The position numbers and the translations under genes were made by a program. DNA of 64,000 nucleotides. It comes from Naegleria gruberi (lineage: Eukaryota). Numbering within the stretch: the stretch's first letter is position 1; the number at the start of each line of letters is the position of its first letter. The DNA is taken from NCBI GenBank assembly GCA_000004985.1, contig GG738918.1; one strand, written 5' to 3'. A model generated the notes under the pieces. That model ran no database searches and was not told the origin of the DNA. It saw only the letters and a list, made by a program, of their open reading frames with translations. Positions 1,716 through 17,741 of this stretch are shown here, in pieces.

Positions 1716-3173
1716 TTAATCGTTGAATTGAACAATAATATTAACACCACGATCGGCAATAACTTCAGTATCAGTAGCATAAAGTTCAGTTCCTGTATGG
1801 AATAATTCCTTGACCTTCTTCTTCAAGTTTGGTTCAGTCATTTGTCTGAGAGTTGCAGGTTTAGTCAAATACAAAGTTTGGTCACTAGTCAAATTACGTA
1901 ATGAAGCATTGTTGAATTGAATTGACTTGTCGGTTCTCAAAATATCTCTAAATTCATCCAAAGTAATATCTGATGAACAAGTAATTGTCTTTGAAACACC
2001 AGCAGGACCACATTGCAAACAATCTGGCTTTCTTTCATTCTTATAAGTGAATGTATAAATACCTTCACTTCCGTTAAACATCATGTAATCATCCAAGAAT
2101 GGAGTACAGAAAGTAGCCAATTTGAATGCTTCATTTGTACATGATGAAGCAATAATAGCATTGGTGGAGGCAATAGCAGGAATGATACCCTTGATGACAC
2201 CTTGTGTTAAACGGAATGTAACACCAGCAATACCAAAGTTCTTGGCACGTTCCAAAGACTTTTCATAGATCCATTGAACGTGTCTTGGATTATCACCATC
2301 AACTTGTTCATCATCAGGAATACCTTCCTTTCCTTTACAATTACGCCATTCTTCAATATAACAATATTGAATACAATGTTCAGGAAGACGTGGAGTTGTC
2401 TTTAAAGTACACATTGGATAATTTGTTTCATCAGTAGGGAATAAATCCAAAGTACATTCATAACAAGATGTAACACCTGGCAAGATAACTCTAGATTGTC
2501 CTTTAAAGCCTTCAGTACCACCATCAACCAAGGAAATCATGGAACTCATATCAACTTCAGTCTTTTCATCATCAACATATTGAATCAAAGAGAGGAGAGT
2601 ACTATTGATCCAACGACGAGCTGGAATAGAATCCAAACCAGCAATAATAATTCCAAATGATCTATAGAAATCAACAGACTTTTCTTGGATTGCACAAATG
2701 TGTGCTGTAACTTTAACACCTGGCACTCTTTCATTGACAAATCGAGCAGCAACTTCAGCCTTCATCTTACCAACATCACCATCACGGAACAAAAATTGTC
2801 TATTCAAATTACTTGTACTGATGGTATCCATATCAATGATATCAATATTACGGAAGCCACTCATTGCCAAATTCTTCACCAAATCGCAACCAAGACCACC
2901 AGCTCCAATAATTAAAACTTTGCAAGAATCTTGTAAAAATTGTTTAGTTTCATCACCAGCTTGGAAATCTGCTGGAGCAAATGGACCTGATCTCTTCAAA
3001 ATATAATCAAGATCTTTCCATCTTTCTGCTTCAATTTCAGGAGGGAATGATGTATCTACAACGCTGGCCATTTTTTTTCTATGTATTGAATTGATCAAAC
3101 TTGCAGAGAACTTGAGTTTATTTTTAAATCCAAAGTTGCTGCTTTGAAAGGCTTGGGATGAACTCAACAACAT
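1716..3173 (-). CDS. uba3: NEDD8-activating enzyme E1 catalytic subunit (UBA3). The likely true start is the MASVVD methionine at 3071.
   Basis: It carries the ThiF/MoeB-type E1 fold motifs VLIIGAGGLGCDLVKNLAMSGF..IDMDTISTSNLNRQFLFR, the catalytic Cys region and a C-terminal NEDD8-E1 domain. It aligns along its whole length to UBA3. Confidence 0.85.
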   Translation of the reverse strand: MLLSSSQAFQSSNFGFKNKLKFSASLINSIHRKKMASVVDTSFPPEIEAERWKDLDYILKRSGPFAPADFQAGDETKQFLQDSCKVLIIGAGGLGCDLVKNLAMSGFRNIDIIDMDTISTSNLNRQFLFRDGDVGKMKAEVAARFVNERVPGVKVTAHICAIQEKSVDFYRSFGIIIAGLDSIPARRWINSTLLSLIQYVDDEKTEVDMSSMISLVDGGTEGFKGQSRVILPGVTSCYECTLDLFPTDETNYPMCTLKTTPRLPEHCIQYCYIEEWRNCKGKEGIPDDEQVDGDNPRHVQWIYEKSLERAKNFGIAGVTFRLTQGVIKGIIPAIASTNAIIASSCTNEAFKLATFCTPFLDDYMMFNGSEGIYTFTYKNERKPDCLQCGPAGVSKTITCSSDITLDEFRDILRTDKSIQFNNASLRNLTSDQTLYLTKPATLRQMTEPNLKKKVKELFHTGTELYATDTEVIADRGVNIIVQFND

Positions 3174-4444: not shown

Positions 4445-6961
4445 ATGTTTCATCCATTCAATCGATCATTTTCCATCTCGATCAATCATCGATGGGTAAA
4501 AAAAATCCATCTAAAAATTTATGTCATGGTTTCTCCAAGATCAAAAAAAATGCCAAGATCATCCACTCCAACCAAAAGGAAAACCATTCAACAGCCATTA
4601 ATATTTCAACCCACTTTGAAGAAAACTAAATCATCCGAAACAACGTTGAATTCTCCTATTACTATTAGTGATGATGGTGAGAATGAGGATTTATTGTTAT
4701 CAGCTGATGGAGATCAAGCACATGATGATGATATTGAAATATCAACAGAGACTGTTTCGGATTCATCAAGCAAATATTCAATTATTAGAACACCTATTAA
4801 TGATTCATCGACAGTGGATGAATTGGGATTGGAAAGTGTTGAAGCTCATGAACTTCAACAATATTTCAATGCTGAGAAATATTTAGCTAAAGAAAAAGGT
4901 AAATGTAAAAAGATTTATTGCATAGATAGAGGATCTTCATTTACAAAGGGTAACAAGTTTGATATTTTAGAAAAGAGAGTCAAACCAACTATATTAAAAT
5001 TTGGACATAAGGAAAAGACACAATTTTTACCTTCTCAAACATTTTACAATTTACAAAAAGGTCAAGTGAAGATGGGTAAATTTGAGGTTAGTAATGAATG
5101 GGAAGAATTGGAAAATTTGAAAAAGATATTCATGGTGAGTGAGTTATTGGAAATTGGATTAAAATCTGAGAAGAAGAAACTTAGAGTATCTCACATTATT
5201 TATTTAATGATTAGAGATTTAATATCTCAATTATTAACAACTAAAAAACAAGATTCTAATTATTTGGAAGGTATTGGTGCATGGATATTTACATGTCCAT
5301 CAGGAACAAGTGTATTTACTAAATTAATATTTAGAAATTGTATATTTAAAGCATATAATAGTTTAAACATTAATGAAAATAATCCATTACAAATAGATGA
5401 CATATATGTTATTGAGGAATGTACATTATTGAAATATTTTGCCAACAATCAAGAAAAAACATCTACAATGTTTGTTGATTTGGGTCATTTAACACTTGAT
5501 GTCGTTGTGATGGATTTAATTGATGGTGAATATATTGTAACATTTAAAAATGGTGAATCTAGTGGAATGTCACTCATACATCAATTATTAAAAGATAATG
5601 GATTAGATTCAATTAAGGAAATGGAAAATTTATTTGATAATTATCATGATTCTAATGAATTACCACCATCTTTATTACCTCTTAAAAATCAAATTGATGA
5701 AACATTGAAAACTATTACAAAACCTCTATGTATGATGATATTACAAAAGCAAGTAGATTCTATTCACTTTTCAGGTGCTATTACACGAGTTGCTTATTTT
5801 CAAAGAAAATTACAAGAAAATATTAGTTATGTACGTTTACAAAATATTAAGAATGAGCTACTTCCATATTTAAAAGAAGAATTCAAGAATAGAGATATAC
5901 CTATTATTGAATTTTTATGTGAAACTACAGGTGAAAGTGCTTTACTATCAGGTGCAGAAGAAATGATTAATTGTTCTTTAATGAAAATTTCACAAAATGA
6001 ACTCGATTGTAATGTTCCAATTATATTTAAGGAGAAATCTATTAGTGAACAAGTACTTAGTGAACCCTCAATATCATCAATACCAGAAATGAATGAACAA
6101 ACACTACCAACTACTATTGATTGTTTATTATCATCTATTAGTTATAATGACAGTAATAATATTGAGCAGTATGTACCTGCCATGCTATTTGACCATTGCA
6201 ATAGTGGAAGGGTCGAAAAAAAAATGTTATTGGGAAATGTTTTACTAGACATGAATATTAAACAAGATACTGAAATATTTTTAATCAAGTTTAGTCCACT
6301 CATTGATACTAAATTAATATCAACTATTGATTATGAAAATTTTGAAAAAGTGGGAATTATTGAATTCATTAGATTTACCAATTTAATCATTTGTTTTGAT
6401 TGTAATCACATTAAAACTACTACCAATTTACACTTTTATATGAAGTTGGATTTGGAAGATGATTTCTTATTAGTTAGAATTTATTATACTAAAGGTAAAT
6501 CCTTTTTTAAAACTATTACACGAATTGAAAGAAAAGGAAGAAATGAAAGAATTTCCATTAATGATTCTGCTCAACTAATTTTTAAAACAAAAGAAGATGA
6601 AGTAAGAACATGGTATGGTGTATATTATGATACTTTGAGTATTGTATCCAGTTTTTCAAGTATTTCCATTAAATATGCAGAATTAGAAAACGAAATTGGA
6701 GTTGAAAAAGCAAAGGGATTACATGTTGGTAGCAAGCAGCTATCTATTCCAAGTATTGGATCAAAAGATAAGGAATTTGTAAGAAAACACCTTTCTAAAT
6801 GTTCTGTTTGTCAATGCGAAATTAAGAAGGTGCATGCTTGTATTTCTTATAACAAACTACCAATATTTAGAAAAGTATTTGATGATAATTCCATTAATCT
6901 TGGAAATTGTTGTAGTCCTTGTTATAGAATCTATAATGATTTAAAAAAGGAAGAAAAATAG
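4445..6961 (+). CDS. HSPA12-like atypical Hsp70/actin-fold (ASKHA) protein, with degenerate phosphate-binding loops and a Cys-rich C-terminal motif.
   Basis: IYCIDRGSSFTKGNKF resembles the HSPA12 phosphate-1 motif AIDFGTTSSGYA. FVDLGHLTLDVVVMDLIDGEYIVTFKNGESSGMSLIHQLL resembles the HSPA12 phosphate-2/connect motif VVDCGGGTVDLTVHQI..LYKASGGPYGSLGVD. The conserved glycines are replaced (DRGSS, DLGHLT). The C-terminus has a CSVCQCEIKKVHAC...CCSPC cysteine cluster. The true start is probably downstream, at MVSPRSKK (4526) or MPRSS. Confidence 0.45.
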   Translation: MFHPFNRSFSISINHRWVKKIHLKIYVMVSPRSKKMPRSSTPTKRKTIQQPLIFQPTLKKTKSSETTLNSPITISDDGENEDLLLSADGDQAHDDDIEISTETVSDSSSKYSIIRTPINDSSTVDELGLESVEAHELQQYFNAEKYLAKEKGKCKKIYCIDRGSSFTKGNKFDILEKRVKPTILKFGHKEKTQFLPSQTFYNLQKGQVKMGKFEVSNEWEELENLKKIFMVSELLEIGLKSEKKKLRVSHIIYLMIRDLISQLLTTKKQDSNYLEGIGAWIFTCPSGTSVFTKLIFRNCIFKAYNSLNINENNPLQIDDIYVIEECTLLKYFANNQEKTSTMFVDLGHLTLDVVVMDLIDGEYIVTFKNGESSGMSLIHQLLKDNGLDSIKEMENLFDNYHDSNELPPSLLPLKNQIDETLKTITKPLCMMILQKQVDSIHFSGAITRVAYFQRKLQENISYVRLQNIKNELLPYLKEEFKNRDIPIIEFLCETTGESALLSGAEEMINCSLMKISQNELDCNVPIIFKEKSISEQVLSEPSISSIPEMNEQTLPTTIDCLLSSISYNDSNNIEQYVPAMLFDHCNSGRVEKKMLLGNVLLDMNIKQDTEIFLIKFSPLIDTKLISTIDYENFEKVGIIEFIRFTNLIICFDCNHIKTTTNLHFYMKLDLEDDFLLVRIYYTKGKSFFKTITRIERKGRNERISINDSAQLIFKTKEDEVRTWYGVYYDTLSIVSSFSSISIKYAELENEIGVEKAKGLHVGSKQLSIPSIGSKDKEFVRKHLSKCSVCQCEIKKVHACISYNKLPIFRKVFDDNSINLGNCCSPCYRIYNDLKKEEK

Positions 6962-7074: not shown

Positions 7075-9525
7075 TCAATTTCCAGACAGGTTGTTAATGT
7101 GATTCTTATAGATAGAGATTAGTTCTAAAACTTGTCTAACTTCTTGGAAGTTGATAGTGTTGTGAGTAGTTGATGGATTTTCACGATTACTAAATGAGAG
7201 ATTTCTCCAATAATTTGCAACATTAACATCTGCACAATTTTGTTCCTTTCTAAACTTTTTCAAATTATAGAAGAGTCCAACAAGATTCCCTCTAAGGTAT
7301 TTCTTTGCAGTCTCATTGAATTGTTTGATATCTTGTTCAATAGATAAAAGTTGCTCATTGTAAAAAATGTTGATGGATTGGCAGAGTTCTATGTATATAT
7401 TTTTGAATTGTGAAAATGGTTTGGTGAAGAGGGGATTGAGATTGTTCACTAAATGATCTTCATTCACTTGATTAGAGAATTTACTTTGCATGATGGATGA
7501 AACTATTCTTGTATCATTATATTTTGATGAGGTCAACTCGTATGGAGGATTTTCTAGAACATACTTGTCCAGTTTTGAGACTAAATAATTGACATTACAC
7601 AATCTGAGAGAGGGAATATTTGAGTGAAGAGATGACTTCAATATAAAACATTTGTATGGTTGTTTGAAATTGACAAACTCTAGTCCTTCATATTCGAGGG
7701 GTGAGAACTTTTCAAAATCATTCACAAAATCCTGAAGGTCCAAAAATCCTATATCTGAATATGATTTAACAAAGTCGTTCCAATTATATTTTGTAGAAAA
7801 ATCAATCCAATTTTCATATTCCATCATAGATTCTAGATTTCTACTCCCACAATAAATAATTCTATTACTATTTTTCTGATAAATGAAGAAAAAGTTCAAC
7901 ATTTGATCTTCATGGGATGGATACTTCATTCCAATTCTTTCAAACAGATTTTCAAATTCCTGTTCAGTTTGACTCATATCAAAATTCTTGAGAATCCATT
8001 TGGAAATCCAATTGTCCTTTTCATCATCAAAGACAAACCTCCACTCACCAGAATAAAAGAAAAGCGAACACCTTATCCCAACTGGCCTTTCTAGAATTTG
8101 AATTGAGCTCATGTCAATATCTGAAAAATAGTCACTACCAACTTTTTCTAGTATGAAATTATAATCCATAGCATAGAATCTAGGAACACATACAGGAGTG
8201 TAAACTATCTTTCCATTATCATCAATATTATAAGATAGTACTGTTCCATTACATTCCAAGTAGGACCTACATTCTAAGAAAAGTTTACACAATTCTAAGG
8301 AAATATATTCCATATCACAATCTATCTTGAATAGTTGAGAACTATTAGGATTAAGATGCTCCTCTTTGGATCTAATAATTGGTGTCACATTCACTGAAAG
8401 TAATCTCATCAAGCTGTATGGACCGTATTTGTAGTGGTGTGAAAAGTCTAGTTCATAATTATGCTCTACAACCATTATTAATTCACTAAACAGTGGATTA
8501 TCCTTTTCAAAGCCTGAAGAATATGTATTCAGGAAGTTTTGAATACCCAATGAACTATTGCTTTCTGAGTTTTTACATTTGAAAAGGGCATCTTTGATAA
8601 TATTCTTCAGATCATCTTTTAATTGTTCCTTCCATGTCTTATAGAGTGCATCACTAATTTGTTTATACTCATTCCAAGAACTAAATGAATCAGTATGAAA
8701 TACAATGCTGTCATAGAGTTTGTTAGTTTCGGTATAATCATATATAATACCTGAATTAACAAATTGATAAGCATATTTCGAGTATCTAATACCATGAGCT
8801 AGGTTTTTCTTCACCTTCTTTAGAGTACTTTTCCTTTCACTTTCATCCTTGCAAAGTTTGTTCTCCAAAACATTCCAAAATCTAAATGCCTTATTAAAGC
8901 AATGATGAAGCTCGTGAAGGAATGAATTTTTAGTTCTAGAAATTCTCAAAAACCACAAACTCCAATGATGCCTCCATAATTTCATCTTTTCATCCTCAAA
9001 CAGAACAAATGATGAATTTGGTTGCAGAACAGATAGCATGAATATTGGCAATTGTAAATAAACATGGTCCACAAAGAATGAAGTTTCCATAATGTGCACT
9101 TCCATATCGTATTCCTTCTCTTCTAATTTACCCTCCTCATCATCACAATTACACTTAATAGAGCTTTTCAATAAATATTGTAAATTATTAGAATATCTCG
9201 TTTCATAATCAATACAATGAGAGTAAAAATCATCAACAATCATTATTAAATCAAAATCAGAATCGTTTACATTGGTTTTTGAAACTCTTGATCCGAACAC
9301 GTAAATTCCTCTAATCGAATCATCACGATATAAAACCTTGTCCTTCAACAAGCCTTCTTCAGAAATTGTAATAAAATTGCGAATATGATAAATTAATTCA
9401 TCACTTGAGAAGGGAAATTTAAATTGATTTTCATGGAAATGATGTGATTGCCAATATTGACTCGGTCCAGTACTCTCTTTATCATAACGGAAATTATTAA
9501 TGGTGCATTTTGGAAATTGTTGCAT
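7075..9525 (-). CDS. Large (816 aa) protein with an N-terminal Pol-beta/Cid1-GLD2-like nucleotidyltransferase motif and a ~600 aa uncharacterised C-terminal region.
   Basis: The N-terminus reads GIYVFGSRVSKTNVNDSDFDLIMIVDD, the [F/Y]GS...SD[FI]D[LI] signature of non-canonical poly(A) polymerases/TUTases and other Pol-beta-fold NTases. A candidate third acidic residue (YDMEVHIME) lies about 55 aa downstream. I recognise no other domain. Confidence 0.4.
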   Translation of the reverse strand: MQQFPKCTINNFRYDKESTGPSQYWQSHHFHENQFKFPFSSDELIYHIRNFITISEEGLLKDKVLYRDDSIRGIYVFGSRVSKTNVNDSDFDLIMIVDDFYSHCIDYETRYSNNLQYLLKSSIKCNCDDEEGKLEEKEYDMEVHIMETSFFVDHVYLQLPIFMLSVLQPNSSFVLFEDEKMKLWRHHWSLWFLRISRTKNSFLHELHHCFNKAFRFWNVLENKLCKDESERKSTLKKVKKNLAHGIRYSKYAYQFVNSGIIYDYTETNKLYDSIVFHTDSFSSWNEYKQISDALYKTWKEQLKDDLKNIIKDALFKCKNSESNSSLGIQNFLNTYSSGFEKDNPLFSELIMVVEHNYELDFSHHYKYGPYSLMRLLSVNVTPIIRSKEEHLNPNSSQLFKIDCDMEYISLELCKLFLECRSYLECNGTVLSYNIDDNGKIVYTPVCVPRFYAMDYNFILEKVGSDYFSDIDMSSIQILERPVGIRCSLFFYSGEWRFVFDDEKDNWISKWILKNFDMSQTEQEFENLFERIGMKYPSHEDQMLNFFFIYQKNSNRIIYCGSRNLESMMEYENWIDFSTKYNWNDFVKSYSDIGFLDLQDFVNDFEKFSPLEYEGLEFVNFKQPYKCFILKSSLHSNIPSLRLCNVNYLVSKLDKYVLENPPYELTSSKYNDTRIVSSIMQSKFSNQVNEDHLVNNLNPLFTKPFSQFKNIYIELCQSINIFYNEQLLSIEQDIKQFNETAKKYLRGNLVGLFYNLKKFRKEQNCADVNVANYWRNLSFSNRENPSTTHNTINFQEVRQVLELISIYKNHINNLSGN

Positions 9526-9745: not shown

Positions 9746-11440
9746 TTGACAAATTACTTCGATATTTATCATGTGATCTATATCTTAGCTAGCTGTATCT
9801 CTCACAGGATATCATCTCTCGACCCGTCAATGTCCATTAGTATCATTAGAAAAAAAAACGAATCTTATATCATGAACGAAACCTTTCTCTACAACAATAC
9901 AGCCTTCTCTTCATGTCCCAGTTGGTTTCCTTATCACCTCGTCGACCCATCCACTCTATCTAATAACAATACACTCGATATGGAATGTCCTGATACAATT
10001 CTCGTTCCAATAACAAGTGGAATTTTATATGGATCTTATTTAATATTATTTTTAATTTGTTTAATTTTTCTAATTTGGAAGAGGAAGGCATCTACTATCA
10101 AGGCCAGATCGCCCGTCATTTTATCTTTTGGATTAGTTGCAAATTTTACCTTAGTTTCCCTAGCATTAATTCGGTGCATTGTTGGAAAAACTGATTTTCC
10201 ATGTTTTTTATTTTCGATATTTTACTTTATTTTAGGACCGTGTTTTGTGGTGCCGTCAATTATTAGAGGAATTGAACTGATTATTCAATATAAGGTCAAT
10301 TTATTGAGAGCTAAGAGTATTTCTAGATGTAATCTTTCGAATAATTATTCGACACAGGTGCAGGATGTTAAGAGTGATGTTGTGAGTGAGAAGACTGAAA
10401 CTCAATCAGAATGTGGAACTTCATATAAGGAAACTAGATCAGTACGAGTATTGACAACTTTGAATAGAATACTGCAGAGTGCTATATTTCATTTGTGTTT
10501 TACTTTATTCTTGTTGATATTTCATTTGGGCATTTGGTTATGTTCTGGGTTGATTGAAGATGGTTTCTATTCGAAACACAGATTTTTCATGACTAATGCC
10601 AGTATTTTGAGTGTTGGAGGATGTTATTCATCTACTGGAAGTTCGATTGCCATGGCTGTGTTTGTTGGATTATATTTTATCATTGACTTGATAATTAATA
10701 TTATATGTTTGACAATTGACAATGACACATTCAACATCAAGATTGGAAATCTAGGCATGACAGTAGTAAGAATACTATGTGGTATATTTTACCTTGTATT
10801 TTCACAAGTTCCAGTTTTAAGATCTACTGGCAGAATCATTCCTTCTATTTATGTATTTATCCTAAACTGTATTGTTGAACTAATTGTCACAATTCTCATT
10901 CCATCCATTAAAGATTGTATAGATAAGATGAAATACCAATCAAAATACAACCAATCAGAAATTGAATGTGTTTTAAATGACCAAAAACTTTTCAATATTT
11001 TAATTGATTTTTCAAGAAGAAGTTACAGCCCTGAAAGTGTTTTATTTTACAAAGATATTCAACATTACAAACAATTGGTGGCAAAGCTTGAAATGATGGA
11101 AAATGGAGCTTTTCAACATGTTGAGTCAATTAAGAATTTACGTGTGAAAATTACACGTTTCGTTCAGAATATTGTTCATGTTTATTTATGTGAAGGAAGT
11201 GTTAATGAATTGAATATTCCTAATTTGAAAATGAAGAAATTGGAATTGACCAACAAGATTGCTGCATGTATAGAATTTGAATCTAATAGATTTACCAGGG
11301 ATTTATTCGATTCAATCTTGGTAGAATCAATGCTCACTCTGATGGAAGTGTATCATCGATTGAAACAACAAAACCCCACCATACGACAATTCTCCCTACA
11401 TTGGAAAAATGATCAAGACAAGCTCAACAATTCACTGTAA
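9746..11440 (+). CDS. Seven-transmembrane receptor with a C-terminal RGS domain (7TM-RGS, AtRGS1-like architecture).
   Basis: Seven hydrophobic segments follow an N-terminal Cys-containing ectodomain (CPSWFPYHL..LDMECPDTILVPI). The C-terminal RGS domain reads SVLFYKDIQHYKQ..VYLCEGSVNELNIPNLK..LFDSILVESMLTLMEVYHRL. The likely true start is MNETF at about 9872. Confidence 0.7.
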   Translation: MTNYFDIYHVIYILASCISHRISSLDPSMSISIIRKKNESYIMNETFLYNNTAFSSCPSWFPYHLVDPSTLSNNNTLDMECPDTILVPITSGILYGSYLILFLICLIFLIWKRKASTIKARSPVILSFGLVANFTLVSLALIRCIVGKTDFPCFLFSIFYFILGPCFVVPSIIRGIELIIQYKVNLLRAKSISRCNLSNNYSTQVQDVKSDVVSEKTETQSECGTSYKETRSVRVLTTLNRILQSAIFHLCFTLFLLIFHLGIWLCSGLIEDGFYSKHRFFMTNASILSVGGCYSSTGSSIAMAVFVGLYFIIDLIINIICLTIDNDTFNIKIGNLGMTVVRILCGIFYLVFSQVPVLRSTGRIIPSIYVFILNCIVELIVTILIPSIKDCIDKMKYQSKYNQSEIECVLNDQKLFNILIDFSRRSYSPESVLFYKDIQHYKQLVAKLEMMENGAFQHVESIKNLRVKITRFVQNIVHVYLCEGSVNELNIPNLKMKKLELTNKIAACIEFESNRFTRDLFDSILVESMLTLMEVYHRLKQQNPTIRQFSLHWKNDQDKLNNSL

Positions 11441-11826: not shown

Positions 11827-14800
11827 TTATTCTAAAAGTCTTCTTCTTCTATCGATATCATCATCCTCATCATCACTTGTAAAATTGCTAACATCATCCT
11901 CATCTTCCTCTTCATCCTCATCAGCTATTGCTGGTATTGACACTTCCTCAATATCTGCCAATAATTTAGCTTTAGTGAAAACTGTACCAATACCACGTCC
12001 AAAATATTCACAAACCAGAGAATAACCATCCAACTTCTTGGTATTAAGTTGCTTAAAGAAGGATTCGTGTTGTTCACTCGACTCTTCGAATTTTCTCTTT
12101 CTTTGGAGAATATCTCTGTGCTTATCAGAACAAACTCTACATTCACCTTCATTACCAACAAGGAGACATCTTTGATGGTATGAGTGATTACACATGAAAT
12201 GTACAGCAGGCAAGTCCAATTGAGCATTACAGAAAGTACAAGTGGTAGCTTGGAAAGTTTTGGCACTGGTTTGTAAATCGTAAATTTCCTTTCTCATTTG
12301 AGCAGTTTCAGTTTGGAATTCCTTGATCTTTTCTACATCTTCTCTTATCATTTCTTGTTCTTTTTGAATTTTAGAAATCAGATAGTCCTTTACAGAATAG
12401 AGTTTGGTCTTTTCATTCTTACCAAGAATTTGAACAACCAGTAATGGAGGTAAAATTTCATCCTTTTCAATCTTTTCTAATACAATAGCTAATTCTTCTT
12501 CAACATTATCATCCAATGTGGCAAAATATGTGAGAACTTGAACCCACAAATTTGGATCCTTGTCACCATATTGATTAACAGAGGCGATTACATTCTTGTA
12601 ATCACGTTGCTCCATATAATATTGGATAATATAATAGTGAAGACCCAAAGTATCATAAATCTTGAGTACACCTTCTTTAAAGTTTTGTGATTGGACAAGA
12701 ACAAGAACGTGCTCCTTATCATAGTTAGATTGTGGATGGTCGAGTGTATAAAGCAATCTATCTTTAAAGCTCAAATTGGCAATATCTGTGCTTGGTGGCT
12801 GAATTTCATATCTATCAGAAATGCCTTGAGTTTGCTCAAGTTCTGGTCTTTTCTTAGAATCAGTATCCAAATATTTAAGATAAAGTTCAATGAGCGTATT
12901 GTACACAACCTTGGAATGTGATGTATCTGGTCGAAGAGTTCTCCAAATAACATTTTCCAAAAATATCATTAACCAGTATTGATCCTTACTTGGGAAGCAA
13001 TGAATATATGACTCTGGTTTTGGTTTAGCATGTTCAATGTGTTGATTATTATACATATCTTCATATCCGGTAGTTTTAACAATTTGAGATTCAAGATTAG
13101 CAGATGATTGTTTCAAACCTAGAAGTACATTCAGAATACCCCCTTCTTTCTTCTTTTCTGCTTGGTTGCTTGAATCATTGGAGTTTGGTATAATTCTAAG
13201 CTTGTAATTATCAATGATTCTCTTTTGAGTTAACTTGATATCACTATCCAAAACTCTATTTGTTTCAGCAGGGTGAATTGGGAAATATTCTGTACACAAT
13301 CTTATGAGAGCGTTAGTAGTCTCTTTTGGTAAATGTGAAATGAGTGTTTTACCATAGGTTTTCAGATAACTTTCAGCTTCAGGTAAGGCAAGAGATTCAA
13401 TATATTTGAGCGCTCTTCTAAAGTTCTCTTTAGAATCAACCTTCTCGCCATTATCCTTGTCCAAATTATCTGTATCAAAGTCCTCCAAGTGAATCTTAAT
13501 GTACCAATCGTGTTGTTTGTGTTTCATGGCCAAAATGAGGGCATGTTCCTTGTAGCCGGCTTTTCTACAAACTCTAATAGCTGTCTCTACATCGTACATA
13601 AGCTTATCTTGCATACTGATAAACTTGTCGAGTTTTTCCTTTCTTTCATCCTTCAATTTGGTGTAACAGTTTAACAAGAGGGTTGTGTGATCAGAGGTGG
13701 CAAGACGTTTTTCGTGAAGGGTTTCAAGATATTCTGTAAGGTTACGAATTCTGTTTGCATCCAAGAATTTTCTGATAACATAGGATGGTTCCAATCTACC
13801 AATAGTTCTACAAAATTGTTTCATAGCTCCATCATAATCTTTCTTTGAATACAAGTGATCACCATATTGTTTTGAAATTTCAAACAAGTAATTACTGTCA
13901 AGTTGTTCACTATCAACTAAACTGATGGCAATCGAATAAAAGTTCTTTTGTAAAAGCAATTCCAACTTGGATTGGGTATCTTTTTCTTCCAAAAGGAACA
14001 TTTGTTGTTCAGATTTGTTTTCATCAATATTCGACAATAAAAAGACATTACCCCATTCTTGAAGAATATGTGTAATGTGTAATTTGTCACTCGAATATCT
14101 AAAGGCAATATACTTGTTTTTCAAATCATAAATAGTAATAACTTGTTGAGATTTGCTACTGGTTGTGTTAATATCTGAACTAATAACAATTAAATAATTT
14201 CTGAACCAATGTGACAAGATCTTTTTACCTTCAAAAGCAAAACAAGATCCTTTTCCTTCAGGTTTAAAGAACCAAACAGCAGATTTAGAAGAAACCACAA
14301 AATCTCCATCATTACTCAAAGTACTACATCCAACTTCACATCCAATAGTGTCATCTAAAATTACTTTTGATTGTTCAAGTGCTCTTTGTGATGTACTGCT
14401 ATTAGTATTAATAGAATATTTAAAAACTTGAGTAAGTGAACAACAGAATAAAGTATAATCATTAGGTGAATTACCATATCTCTTAAATCCTAATCCTGTT
14501 ATTCTCTCATTTGGAGCACCATCCAATAAAAACACTTTGTGTGATGACTTTCCTCCTTGTTTTGTAAAATCACCTTCAAATATAATAATTTTACCATTTC
14601 CTAAACCAAGTGCAATACAATTAAAATCTTGATTTGCTTCAAAACAACACACCGGATAAGGTTCCATATCTTTGATCTGACTAAATATCTTGATATCTCT
14701 TACTAATTGATATTGACCAAAACTTGTGTGACCTTCCTTTGTGTGTTCTTTATACTTGTCAAGAGAATAAATTTTCAATACATCCTGATAGGCTTCTCCA

Positions 14801-15126
14801 CCATCATCACCAACAACAACTAAACAATTAGATTTAGCAATATGTTTGATGTGATTAACTCTTGCTTCAAAGGCTTTACATTGACGTGTATTTAAATTTT
14901 TATCCATAACATGAAAAGTACCACGATTATCTCCGAATATAATATTACTTCTTCCGCTAGTACAACAAGTTACATTGGTCTGAGAGAAAAATTTTGATGA
15001 TTTCTCATCACTCACTGTATGCTTGTCAAAGAAGTTGAATTTCTTCCACATTTTTTTTTGATGAAAAGATTTTTTAGTTTTTAAAAATTGATGATCCCGA
15101 ATAGAATATGCAATTCTGTCGTTCAT
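11827..15126 (-). CDS. vps11: Vacuolar protein sorting 11 (HOPS/CORVET core subunit), with an N-terminal beta-propeller, an alpha-solenoid and a C-terminal RING-H2.
   Basis: CFAFEGKKILSHWFRNYLIVIS and GDHLYSKKDYDGAMKQFCRTIGRLEPSYVIRKFLDANRIRNLTEYLETLH are nearly identical to human VPS11. The C-terminal RING reads CTFCNAQLDLPAVHFMCNHSYHQRCL. The homologous start is probably MWKKFNFFDK (ATG at 15053). Confidence 0.9.
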   Translation of the reverse strand: MNDRIAYSIRDHQFLKTKKSFHQKKMWKKFNFFDKHTVSDEKSSKFFSQTNVTCCTSGRSNIIFGDNRGTFHVMDKNLNTRQCKAFEARVNHIKHIAKSNCLVVVGDDGGEAYQDVLKIYSLDKYKEHTKEGHTSFGQYQLVRDIKIFSQIKDMEPYPVCCFEANQDFNCIALGLGNGKIIIFEGDFTKQGGKSSHKVFLLDGAPNERITGLGFKRYGNSPNDYTLFCCSLTQVFKYSINTNSSTSQRALEQSKVILDDTIGCEVGCSTLSNDGDFVVSSKSAVWFFKPEGKGSCFAFEGKKILSHWFRNYLIVISSDINTTSSKSQQVITIYDLKNKYIAFRYSSDKLHITHILQEWGNVFLLSNIDENKSEQQMFLLEEKDTQSKLELLLQKNFYSIAISLVDSEQLDSNYLFEISKQYGDHLYSKKDYDGAMKQFCRTIGRLEPSYVIRKFLDANRIRNLTEYLETLHEKRLATSDHTTLLLNCYTKLKDERKEKLDKFISMQDKLMYDVETAIRVCRKAGYKEHALILAMKHKQHDWYIKIHLEDFDTDNLDKDNGEKVDSKENFRRALKYIESLALPEAESYLKTYGKTLISHLPKETTNALIRLCTEYFPIHPAETNRVLDSDIKLTQKRIIDNYKLRIIPNSNDSSNQAEKKKEGGILNVLLGLKQSSANLESQIVKTTGYEDMYNNQHIEHAKPKPESYIHCFPSKDQYWLMIFLENVIWRTLRPDTSHSKVVYNTLIELYLKYLDTDSKKRPELEQTQGISDRYEIQPPSTDIANLSFKDRLLYTLDHPQSNYDKEHVLVLVQSQNFKEGVLKIYDTLGLHYYIIQYYMEQRDYKNVIASVNQYGDKDPNLWVQVLTYFATLDDNVEEELAIVLEKIEKDEILPPLLVVQILGKNEKTKLYSVKDYLISKIQKEQEMIREDVEKIKEFQTETAQMRKEIYDLQTSAKTFQATTCTFCNAQLDLPAVHFMCNHSYHQRCLLVGNEGECRVCSDKHRDILQRKRKFEESSEQHESFFKQLNTKKLDGYSLVCEYFGRGIGTVFTKAKLLADIEEVSIPAIADEDEEEDEDDVSNFTSDDEDDDIDRRRRLLE

Positions 15127-15205
15127 GAAACTGTGATGATTAGTAATGGATTAACAAAATGTTTAAAGTCAAGCTATTGAGAATGCAAAGATGACAGTGA
15201 AGGGT

Positions 15206-17741
15206 TTATTTTGCATCTATTTTTCGTTTGGATTTTCGAAGTAAATTGCTAACAATTTTACATGGAGTGATGAGCGATAATCTTTCACAAATGTCATACA
15301 TGGCTCTGTAATTGTTTTGAAACATGTAATCTTGAGCCAGTTCCAAATCTTTAGAAACTTTGATTTGTAAATCAGTTGCATCAGTTCTTGCACTTTCTAA
15401 ACTGTATATTCTTGTTGGTGTTTCTTTTCCCTTTAGTAAAATGTAATCAGCAAAATAGCAAACAAATTCATTCTTCACATGTTGATAGGTATTCTCACTG
15501 ATTAGAATATTGGAACCATAATATCTATTCAAAGATTGAAGCTTGGATCCAATATTAACATCATCTCCAATAGCTGTGAAATTCAATCGATTCTCACTTC
15601 CCATACTGCCATACATCATATTTCCACTGCTGACACTAACGTAAATTGAGAGATCAATATCAATTTGTCTTTCATTCCTCCACATTATATTTAATTCATC
15701 GATAATCTCCAAAGCTTCCATTGCAGCTTTGCAAGCTCTCACTTCATGCTCCTCAACTGGCATTGACGAATCATTCCAAACAGCTTGTAATCTATCTCCA
15801 TTTATCATATCAATTAATCCTCTATGATCTTCCATTGCCTTTGTTAAACTTCCAAAATAATCAGTCATCACAGATACAAATATTGATGTTTCAGTTAACT
15901 CTGCCAATTGAGTAAAATCCTTAATACTAGAAACAAGAATTGTCATATTTTGAAGTGTCAATCCAACATCTAAATAATGTTCGTCACTAATCACTTTTTT
16001 CATTATTGTAGGTGAAACAAATTTAGAAAATGCTGAAACTCCTCTCTTTAGAGAATTAATTCCATTCTCCATCTCTCCAATATCATAGAATATTTGACCA
16101 GCAGTTGTGATTTTGGTATTATCACTTTCGCTCGCAAGACTCTTATCACTCAATATCTTGGAGAGTTTCTTGTGAACATGATTTAAGGGTTGTGTGAAAA
16201 GTTGAACAATTACAAAAAGACACAACGTTCCAGCAACGAGAATAACAATGAATACCACTACAGATGTCATACCACTTGAGAGAATTTCTGCAAATATATC
16301 TGCATCTACTGATCCAATAACCAATGCCAAACTCAATCCATATGGATCAACTACTGGAGTTATCACAACATTCTTTCCACGATATTTCAAACTGATTGGT
16401 ACGTTAGAGGTAATGTTTTTCAGTAACTCCTTATCTTGTATATAATTAGCAATTTCAAAAATTTCACCATCTCCAGTATGGACAGTGAACTTGGTTGTGT
16501 TATATCTACTTGAGGCAATAACATTTCCATTCGTTTCCATGATGAAACTATAGCTAATGAAATTGTAAGATCTTGAAGTAGAATTCAGGAAGGAATTCAA
16601 TCCTTTCAGTGCAAACACCTCAGCAACAGCTCCAAATAAATGATCCTTATGTTTAAAATTCGTTATGCTTATATCAATAGAATCAATGCTCTTTCCTGTC
16701 TTACAAGCTTGTGTGATATTCTCTTTTACATAGATAGGATAAGCAATACTAATGGATGGCTCACCAATAGTTGAAATGTAAAGCTCAGTCCATCTCTGCC
16801 CAGTTGCTAATCCTTCCTTGAAAGGATAGTACCACGGTCTTAAATGTAAATCAAAGGCTACTCTCATTTAATATACTCAATTAGTATTGGGAATACTTAC
16901 TAAAAGGCTCAACAAACAAAAAGAGGTTGTCTTTGAGTGGATTCTCAAATGGATTTTCTGAAATATGGTAATAGTACATCGCAGTTCCTGTTCCATTTAT
17001 CAGTAGAACATATGGTGTAGAAATATCCAGTGTTCCAGCATAATTCCTCAAATAATTTCCGTATTGAATTGTTGTGAGTGGTGATTTGTGAATATAGACT
17101 GATCTGAGATATTTGAGAAAAATTGCCCACTCGGTAATATTTTTCAATGGAAATCCATTCTCTACTTCCATTTTTACCTGTTGGATTATCAGATTTGAAG
17201 TGTTGATGATTTTTCCAATTTCAAATGTTACATAACTTTGAGTTTGTTGAGCTTGAAATCTCGAAACTCGCAAAAGAACACTATTTCCAGACGTGTACAT
17301 TAGTATGAAAGAAGGAATCAATCCAATGAGTCCCTGAATAATGAAGAGAACCAACAGGACATGACTAATTCTCAATCCTCTCGAACAATTATACATTCTT
17401 GGTTTTTTGTTTTCTTGTGTTTCTGGCATGTGACGTAAATGTTCTTCCCCATGACGTGACTCCTCGAATGTGAAAACAGTATTTCTCCTTCCATAGATTG
17501 GATCTGGTTTGGTGGTTGGATGAATAATGGATGAGGTGGTACTGTTACCATGGGAAGGTCTTCTATGCAGAGGGGGTGGTGTGTTTCTTTCGACATGTAT
17601 TGTTCTCTCAAATGGATCTTCATCAACAATTTCGATGGGTGTAGATGTTTTCGACTCCTCAATTGTGATTTCCTCTTGAATTGATGATGAGGGAGGTACC
17701 TTCCTAGAAACCAAAAGATCCTCACTATTGTTTGGAATCAT
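15206..17741 (-). CDS. Receptor-type class III adenylyl/guanylyl cyclase, organised as cytosolic N-terminus, TM, extracellular Cache-like sensor domain (RPWYY motif), TM and a single cyclase catalytic domain. It spans two ORF-track ORFs joined by a 40-nt intron (16861-16900).
   Basis: The cyclase domain reads LVSSIKDFTQLAE...INGDRLQAVW...NFTAIGDDVNIGSKLQS, with both metal-binding Asp residues present. The extracellular region reads LHLRPWYYPFKEG, a Cache signature. Two TM helices are present. The minus-strand intron GTAAGTATTCCC...AATGAGAG fuses ...LFVEPF to (I)AFDLHLRPWYY in frame. Confidence 0.7.

Follow-up and report, generated by a model that had tools for sequence, protein, structure and literature searches.

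A Naegleria gruberi protein that joins an RlaP-like nucleotidyltransferase to a degenerate Rnl1-type RNA ligase fold, a candidate RNA 3'-end enzyme

What kind of protein results when a nucleotidyltransferase (NTase) signature is followed by some 600 aa of uncharacterised sequence? This question is raised by a locus in a 64,000-nucleotide stretch of Naegleria gruberi DNA (GenBank assembly GCA_000004985.1, contig GG738918.1), referred to here as the window. The ORF list revealed an uninterrupted single open reading frame (ORF) of 816 aa at window positions 7075..9525 on the minus strand, and its product was 100% the same as N. gruberi EFC37450.1 / XP_002670194.1, which is annotated as "predicted protein NAEGRDRAFT_74811". 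We propose that, in this four-part protein, a pseudo-ligase module that binds RNA directs an NTase to RNA 3' ends, a reading to which we give a probability of roughly 0.6. The gene is as follows.

7075..9525, minus strand: complete coding sequence, 816 aa plus the stop codon at 7075-7077 (ORF list; exact identity to EFC37450.1)

The 816-aa ORF is not a chance ORF, because homologues exist in N. fowleri, Willaertia magna, N. lovaniensis and a metagenome. A word-indexed search returned homologues at 33-43% identity (N. fowleri, 43%; a metagenomic protein, 39%; W. magna, 33%), a truncated N. lovaniensis model with 50% identity over 54% of the query, and the truncated N. gruberi paralogue model EFC45506.1; even with an alignment as query, only heterolobosean proteins were found in this search. 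Both truncations appear to lie in the gene models: EFC45506.1 (P0004) is without the GS/DxD part of the NTase, and the N. lovaniensis model (C9374_010841, P0006) ends inside the ligase-like domain described below, just past its ECNG element. The C-terminal alignment was also used for an exhaustive HMMER search over 1.84 billion representatives, which revealed 68 proteins. Among the relatives, we distinguished NTase-fused (n = 23) and unfused (n = 43) proteins. The fused set included four N. gruberi paralogues (EFC37450.1, EFC45506.1, EFC43642.1 and EFC38870.1) together with proteins of N. lovaniensis and Willaertia, metagenomic proteins and two genes of the amoebozoan Balamuthia mandrillaris. 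None of these four N. gruberi accessions, the window protein included, is among the seven Rnl1 homologues published for this organism (PMC4408790). A pattern scan of IMG/VR viral contigs gave no relatives, a weak negative since the patterns are specific to the Naegleria clade. On the Balamuthia contig JAVKOQ020000112.1, a 619-aa gene (14583..17173) lies two genes downstream of the fused homologue P0029 and matches AAA_33/Zeta_toxin-type P-loop kinases, the class used in RNA 5'-end healing; this may be coincidence.

An earlier reading of the window, made from the letters alone and called here the sequence-only reading, had noted a GS...SDFDL NTase signature in ORF 7075-9525 and assigned a Pol-beta-fold core to the N-terminus. 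The signature is present: the motif FGSRVSKTNVNDSDFDL occupies residues 77-93 and holds G78-S79 and D90-x-D92 (coordinates verified). Pfam Polbeta PF18765 was matched above threshold (E-value (E) of 9.7e-7; 29.3 bits versus a cutoff of 26.9), and NTP_transf_2 was also matched. The features of the N-terminal half are listed below, with the support for each in brackets.

9001..9339, minus strand: Pol-beta-fold NTase core, residues 63-175 (PF18765 at residues 63-114; hhalign match to NrdC.11 at residues 76-174)
9289..9294, minus strand: hG[GS] motif, G78-S79 (invariant in 16/16 fused relatives; coordinates verified)
9250..9258, minus strand: metal-binding DxD, D90-F-D92 (invariant in 16/16 fused relatives; coordinates verified)
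9100..9102, minus strand: third acidic residue, E142 (invariant in alignments A1 and A3; E or D in 14/16 fused relatives)
8491..9000, minus strand: helical domain after the NTase core, residues 176-345 (model helices 179-335; weak collinear matches to the NrdC.11-family profile)
8785..8811, minus strand: KKNLAHGIR motif of the helical domain, K240-N241-x-x-H244-x-x-R247 (near-invariant in 16 fused relatives)

As evident from this list, the hG[GS] motif, the [DE]h[DE]h metal motif and a third carboxylate on a later strand, which together define the Pol-beta superfamily, were all found, and the assignment of the core was supported with its catalytic signature intact (G78-S79, D90-x-D92 and E142). 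Alignment of the catalytic triad had been named beforehand as the test that could overturn this assignment; the triad of the Pol-beta domain does align, and therefore an enzymatic NTase stays the best reading of the N-terminal domain. Judged from its sequence, this domain is likely a working RNA-end nucleotide-adding enzyme of the RlaP-like kind.

Partnerships of an RlaP NTase with an RNA ligase are known from bacterial and phage operons, and RlaP activity was reportedly first shown in a 2025 preprint. RlaP enzymes add one to two NMPs (nucleoside monophosphates) to the RNA 3'-OH, with a preference for damaged RNA, and their genes lie next to those of RNA ligases (PMC12776372). They are genomically linked to RNA ligases and are thought to replace nucleotides lost before ligation (PMC7824862). 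By profile-profile comparison, the best match of the N-terminal module is the RlaP/NrdC.11 family of RNA-repair NTases. T4 NrdC.11 itself counts as a genuine RlaP (PF10127, E 2e-11; phrog_388, E 4e-136); a search with it listed only phage proteins of at least 77% identity, and diverse NrdC.11 homologues were drawn from phage records. When the 16-sequence N-terminal alignment was compared with the resulting 11-sequence NrdC.11 alignment by hhalign, we obtained a probability of 94.5% and an E of 7.9e-8, with residues 76-174 of the window protein paired with residues 8-93 of NrdC.11. Additionally, phrog_388, the NrdC.11 family, was matched by the fused relatives P0013, P0015, P0020 and P0023 at 4e-8 to 3e-6, and the NrdC.11-family hidden Markov model (HMM) gave weak collinear two-part matches, to the core and to positions 241-306, in several relatives.

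The window protein resembles RlaP (PF10127; T4 NrdC.11, Pseudomonas PfRlaP/PaRlaP) in its GS/DxD/third-acid Pol-beta core followed by a helical domain, in a long insert that separates the DxD strand from the strand of the third acid, in a K-x-L-x-H-x-x-R helix and in its association with an RNA ligase. In the RlaP systems, the ligase partner is a separate active enzyme encoded in the operon, whereas in the window protein it is fused and degenerate; moreover, the host of the window protein is a eukaryote, and its activity is predicted from sequence. Because the NrdC.11 profile match was strong and the Pfam threshold was not reached, we call the module RlaP-like; by the Pfam criterion it is not a PF10127 member.

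The sequence-only reading had preferred other relatives: it took the protein for a non-canonical poly(A)/poly(U) polymerase of the Cid1/GLD2 type, or for a synthase of second messengers like cGAS or OAS, that carries a novel appendage. The GS/DxD core is common to all of these families, and a match to MTPAP-like_central was found in four of six family members (E 0.005; 17.4 bits versus a cutoff of 27). However, this match was below threshold, and the search for a PAP-associated (PF03828) or MAB21 domain after the NTase core that had been proposed beforehand revealed no PAP-associated, Mab-21 or OAS domain in any of the six members at E <= 10; the Cid1/GLD2/cGAS assignment was left unsupported for these reasons. 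Furthermore, the profile comparison favours RlaP/NrdC.11, the K-N-x-x-H-x-x-R motif is common to the helical domain and NrdC.11, and the appendage is a ligase fold rather than a novel one. No cGAS or OAS chain was present among the listed top PDB fold matches of the full model, in which the NTase part is of low confidence. We regard a polymerase or synthase of these types as highly improbable.

We then come to the C-terminal part, which had been described as three-quarters of the protein that "match nothing" and as a novel C-terminus of 600 aa. That description did not hold: beyond the core, we found the helical domain, an Rnl1-like ligase fold of ~280 aa, recognised by Foldseek and by profile HMM, and a C-terminal helical domain. 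The expectation that the appendage would prove informative was borne out. It contains a second NTase domain of the ligase type, which is catalytically degenerate. The two C-terminal domains are as follows.

7606..8442, minus strand: degenerate Rnl1-like adenylyltransferase (ligase) fold, residues 362-640 (Foldseek and profile searches)
7078..7605, minus strand: all-helical C-terminal domain at the place of the Rnl1 C-domain, residues 641-816 (model helices; Foldseek span)

A full-length AlphaFold2 model had an overall predicted local distance difference test score (pLDDT) of 57 and was reasonable at residues 470-630 and 700-780. A Foldseek search with this model, a check that had been suggested in advance, revealed T4 Rnl1 as the top three matches in the PDB (2c5u, E 4e-6; range 4e-6 to 7e-6); archaeal Rnl3 and NgrRnl came next. 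The model of residues 350-816 had a predicted template modelling score (pTM) of 0.65, with a pLDDT of 75-91 over much of the C-terminal helical domain, and T4 Rnl1 was again the first match (E 3.8e-8), before Rnl3, fungal Trl1-LIG and other RNA ligases. The Foldseek alignments to T4 Rnl1 covered 437-458 columns, on targets 367-375 residues long. In these models, ~280 aa of the C-terminus adopt the covalent-nucleotidyltransferase fold of RNA ligases, with T4 Rnl1 as the nearest structure, and the window protein has the Rnl1-type N-subdomain and helical C-domain that accompany this fold.

Homology to RNA_lig_T4_1 proteins is likewise detectable at the sequence level through the profile HMM search: Pfam RNA_lig_T4_1 (PF09511) was matched by 34 of the 63 C-terminal relatives that were scanned. 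The window protein itself had no direct match to PF09511, which was reached through these relatives; direct scans of it against Pfam, PDB sequences and PHROG gave the short Pol-beta motif only and left the C-terminus unmatched. An hhalign comparison of the C-terminal alignment with the single T4 Rnl1 sequence found the right register at a probability of 2%, and because of this low pairwise value the link to Rnl1 needed the exhaustive profile and fold searches. Two further candidates, the PH0099 2'-5' ligase/2H protein (E 0.49) and PDK2 (E 0.11), were judged to be chance matches and were absent from the fold searches.

Comparison with known ligases showed what was kept and what was lost. T4 Rnl1 (PF09511) and the window protein share the ECxG element of the N-terminal subdomain, collinear motifs I-V and a helical C-domain after the NTase fold; the window protein differs in the substitution of five catalytic residues and in the added N-terminal NTase module of 345 aa. 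In Trl1, the tRNA ligase of fungi and plants, the ligase domain (Rnl6) is active, carries the KxNG motif and is joined to kinase and CPD domains for healing, whereas the window protein joins a dead ligase fold to a Pol-beta NTase and has no kinase or CPD domain. Three independent alignments agreed on the register of the ligase motifs (hhalign, MAFFT with 65 relatives, and the HMMER profile versus canonical members). The elements of the canonical relatives are ECRG, KFFN, EKxDGS (motif I), FxFE (motif III), EGFVV (motif IV) and RVKIKS (motif V); the corresponding elements of the window protein are listed below.

8245..8256, minus strand: ECNG, the counterpart of ECRG in T4 Rnl1, with Arg54 replaced by Asn426 (hhalign, MAFFT)
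8077..8097, minus strand: motif I remnant ILERPVG, with Lys99 replaced by Arg480 and Asp101 by Val482, and Gly483 kept (hhalign, MAFFT, HMMER)
7876..7896, minus strand: motif III remnant NFFFIYQ, with no acidic residue at the place of Glu159 (E159 to F/I) (MAFFT, HMMER)
7633..7695, minus strand: motif IV EYEGLEF, with E613-G614 kept, and motif V CFILKS, with Lys240 replaced by Ile628 and Lys242 kept as K630 (alignments; coordinates verified)

In place of a motif I KxDG with its nucleophilic lysine, the window protein has R480-P-V-G, and the set formed by the motif III Glu, both motif V lysines and the ATP-contacting Arg54/Lys75 is incomplete, as E159, K240 and R54 are lost. T4 Rnl1 requires both Arg54, its residue for the ATP gamma-phosphate, and Lys75, and the residues that were lost build the lysyl-AMP adduct or touch ATP or the metal in Rnl1/Trl1 (PMC6379707). 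At the nucleophile position, the orthologues have K (N. fowleri, Willaertia), N (N. gruberi paralogue, P0003) or L, and the motif I Asp is found in none of them. The losses thus vary by lineage, which points to a relaxed constraint on catalysis.

The decay goes together with the fusion. At most six of nine ligase catalytic residues were kept in all 23 NTase-fused relatives (mean 3.6), versus nine of nine in 30 of the 43 unfused relatives (mean 7.6), and fusion to the NTase correlates with ligase decay across the relatives. Three fused relatives, P0029, P0041 and P0067, have a near-canonical motif I (EKVEGS, EKLNGI and ERLDGC, respectively) but have lost other motifs; judging from these motifs, they may be intermediate stages of ligase inactivation. 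The C-terminal half as a whole remains conserved (58 columns are invariant, and identity is 33-40%) and is therefore maintained for some function rather than decaying.

One could instead propose a bifunctional RNA repair enzyme of a "trim/fill and seal" type, in which the Pol-beta domain restores 3' nucleotides and the Rnl1-like domain is active through a non-canonical site. RlaP and RNA ligases do cooperate in known repair systems; the window protein keeps the EG of motif IV, Gly483 and the second of the motif V lysines, and a Lys at the nucleophile position is kept in N. fowleri, Willaertia, P0009, P0010 and P0013. However, the window protein has Arg at the nucleophile position and is without the Asp of motif I, the Glu of motif III, the first of the motif V lysines and an equivalent of Arg54, and the ceiling of six residues in the fused relatives, with losses that differ between lineages, indicates relaxed constraint and not a new conserved active site. 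We consider such a bifunctional enzyme quite unlikely.

The ligase fold has lost most of its catalytic residues, and the C-terminus is therefore probably a ligase remnant that has been retained as an RNA-binding module. In the arrangement that we favour, the Pol-beta domain would be the only catalytic centre and would extend 3' ends, with RNA as its presumed substrate. The ligase domain, its adenylylation chemistry lost, would survive as a substrate-recognition device for broken RNA; the RNA bound could be such substrates of Rnl1-type ligases as 5'-phosphate ends or nicked tRNA-like stem-loops. The pseudo-ligase module would present the RNA 3' end to the NTase, and sealing, if any follows, would fall to one of the stand-alone ligases, of which Naegleria has many.

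Elsewhere, two dead proteins of the covalent-NTase fold already serve as binding modules, namely the m3G-cap-binding domain of snurportin-1 and the poxvirus processivity factor A22. These two proteins come from other branches of the superfamily (capping-enzyme-like and DNA-ligase-like, respectively), are without sequence relationship to the window protein and without an NTase fusion, and their ligands (a cap and a DNA polymerase complex) need not hold for the window protein.

Several points weigh against an RNA 3'-end NTase guided by a pseudo-ligase. On the side of the NTase, PF10127 had zero matches at E <= 10 in the window protein or any of the six close family members, and it stayed below its cutoff of 23 bits in the distant fused relatives P0025 (18.3 bits) and P0015 (16.9 bits); the only Pfam matches of the window protein above threshold are the generic Polbeta and NTP_transf_2. 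The helical region alone gave an hhalign probability of 3%, which is not significant, in an alignment that pairs KKNLAHGIRY with WKALSHACR of T4 NrdC.11, and the N-terminal half of the full-length model, with a pLDDT below 50, is too low in confidence for testing an RlaP-like helical fold. On the side of the ligase, RNA binding by the pseudo-ligase domain is purely what we infer, and the dead members named above bind other ligands, caps in the case of snurportin and proteins/DNA in the case of poxvirus A22. Additionally, the Lys at the nucleophile position in the N. fowleri and Willaertia orthologues is among these points, and residual or unusual ligase chemistry may exist in some fused members, as judged from their sequences.

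The first of these points also bears on a more general alternative, a generic minimal NTase (MNT/KNTase-like) whose target is a protein or small molecule, with the ligase-like domain as a nucleotide-/cap-binding or protein-interaction module and no role in RNA repair. The direct database matches are generic and would suit such an NTase. On the other hand, no HEPN partner domain was found, the NrdC.11/RlaP layout is matched by the helical domain of 170 aa and by the long insert from the DxD strand to that of the third acid, and the fusion to a domain derived from an RNA ligase mirrors the known RlaP-ligase linkage. This alternative is, in our view, unlikely, and the RNA 3'-end NTase with its pseudo-ligase module is the reading that we retain.

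The pairing of RlaP with ligases and the Rnl1 fold are already known. The literature searched, outside which the founding RlaP paper lies, gave no eukaryotic example of a covalent fusion whose ligase half is systematically inactivated. At this locus, the RlaP-ligase partnership is contained within a single polypeptide of a eukaryote, and each of the fused relatives that were examined has an inactivated ligase half. The fused family occurs in free-living amoebae of two supergroups: in Heterolobosea, it is present in Naegleria, where the pathogen N. fowleri has it too, and in Willaertia, and in Amoebozoa it is present in Balamuthia mandrillaris. Two of these amoebae, N. fowleri and Balamuthia, infect the brain. 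More tentatively, and with somewhat less than even odds, these proteins could form an unrecognised enzyme class in amoebae of the two supergroups, in which an RNA ligase has been turned into a dead sensor of broken RNA ends that steers a fused RlaP-type NTase; this would be a eukaryotic pathway that marks or restores the ends of damaged RNA, with no human counterpart, and the first pseudo-enzyme of the Rnl1 branch. If the reading is true, the family would be a clear example of a nucleic-acid ligase repurposed as a recognition module and would offer a tractable handle on the cellular substrates of RlaP-type enzymes. It would also enlarge the unusually large RNA-repair repertoire of Naegleria, as N. 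gruberi has at least four such paralogues off its published Rnl1 list.

The surroundings of the gene were also inspected. The identity to EFC37450.1 marks the window as nuclear DNA of N. gruberi, in keeping with its GC (guanine plus cytosine) content of ~32% and its dense and apparently intron-poor ORFs. The gene had been described as convergent to its neighbour at a distance of 114 bp; the orientation was confirmed (ORF 4445..6961, plus strand), and the gap was measured at 113 nt. The label "HSPA12-like pseudo-ATPase" given to this 838-aa neighbour was not reproducible, as zero Pfam matches and zero PDB sequence matches were found at E <= 10. On the other side, and divergent from the gene, a 564-aa ORF (9746..11440, plus strand) carries an RGS domain at its C-terminus (Pfam RGS, E 1.3e-5); its N-terminal half appears hydrophobic and multi-pass by eye, and it may be a protein of the membrane RGS or GPCR-RGS (G-protein-coupled receptor-RGS) type. 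Ordinary eukaryotic neighbours are encoded by the minus-strand ORFs 11827..15126, 1716..3173 and 15206..16867; among these three, one is a Vps11 (PEP5_VPS11_N, E 3e-80, with RING), one is an E1-like enzyme with ThiF and E2_bind (UBA3/NAE type), and one is an adenylate/guanylate cyclase with a Cache domain.

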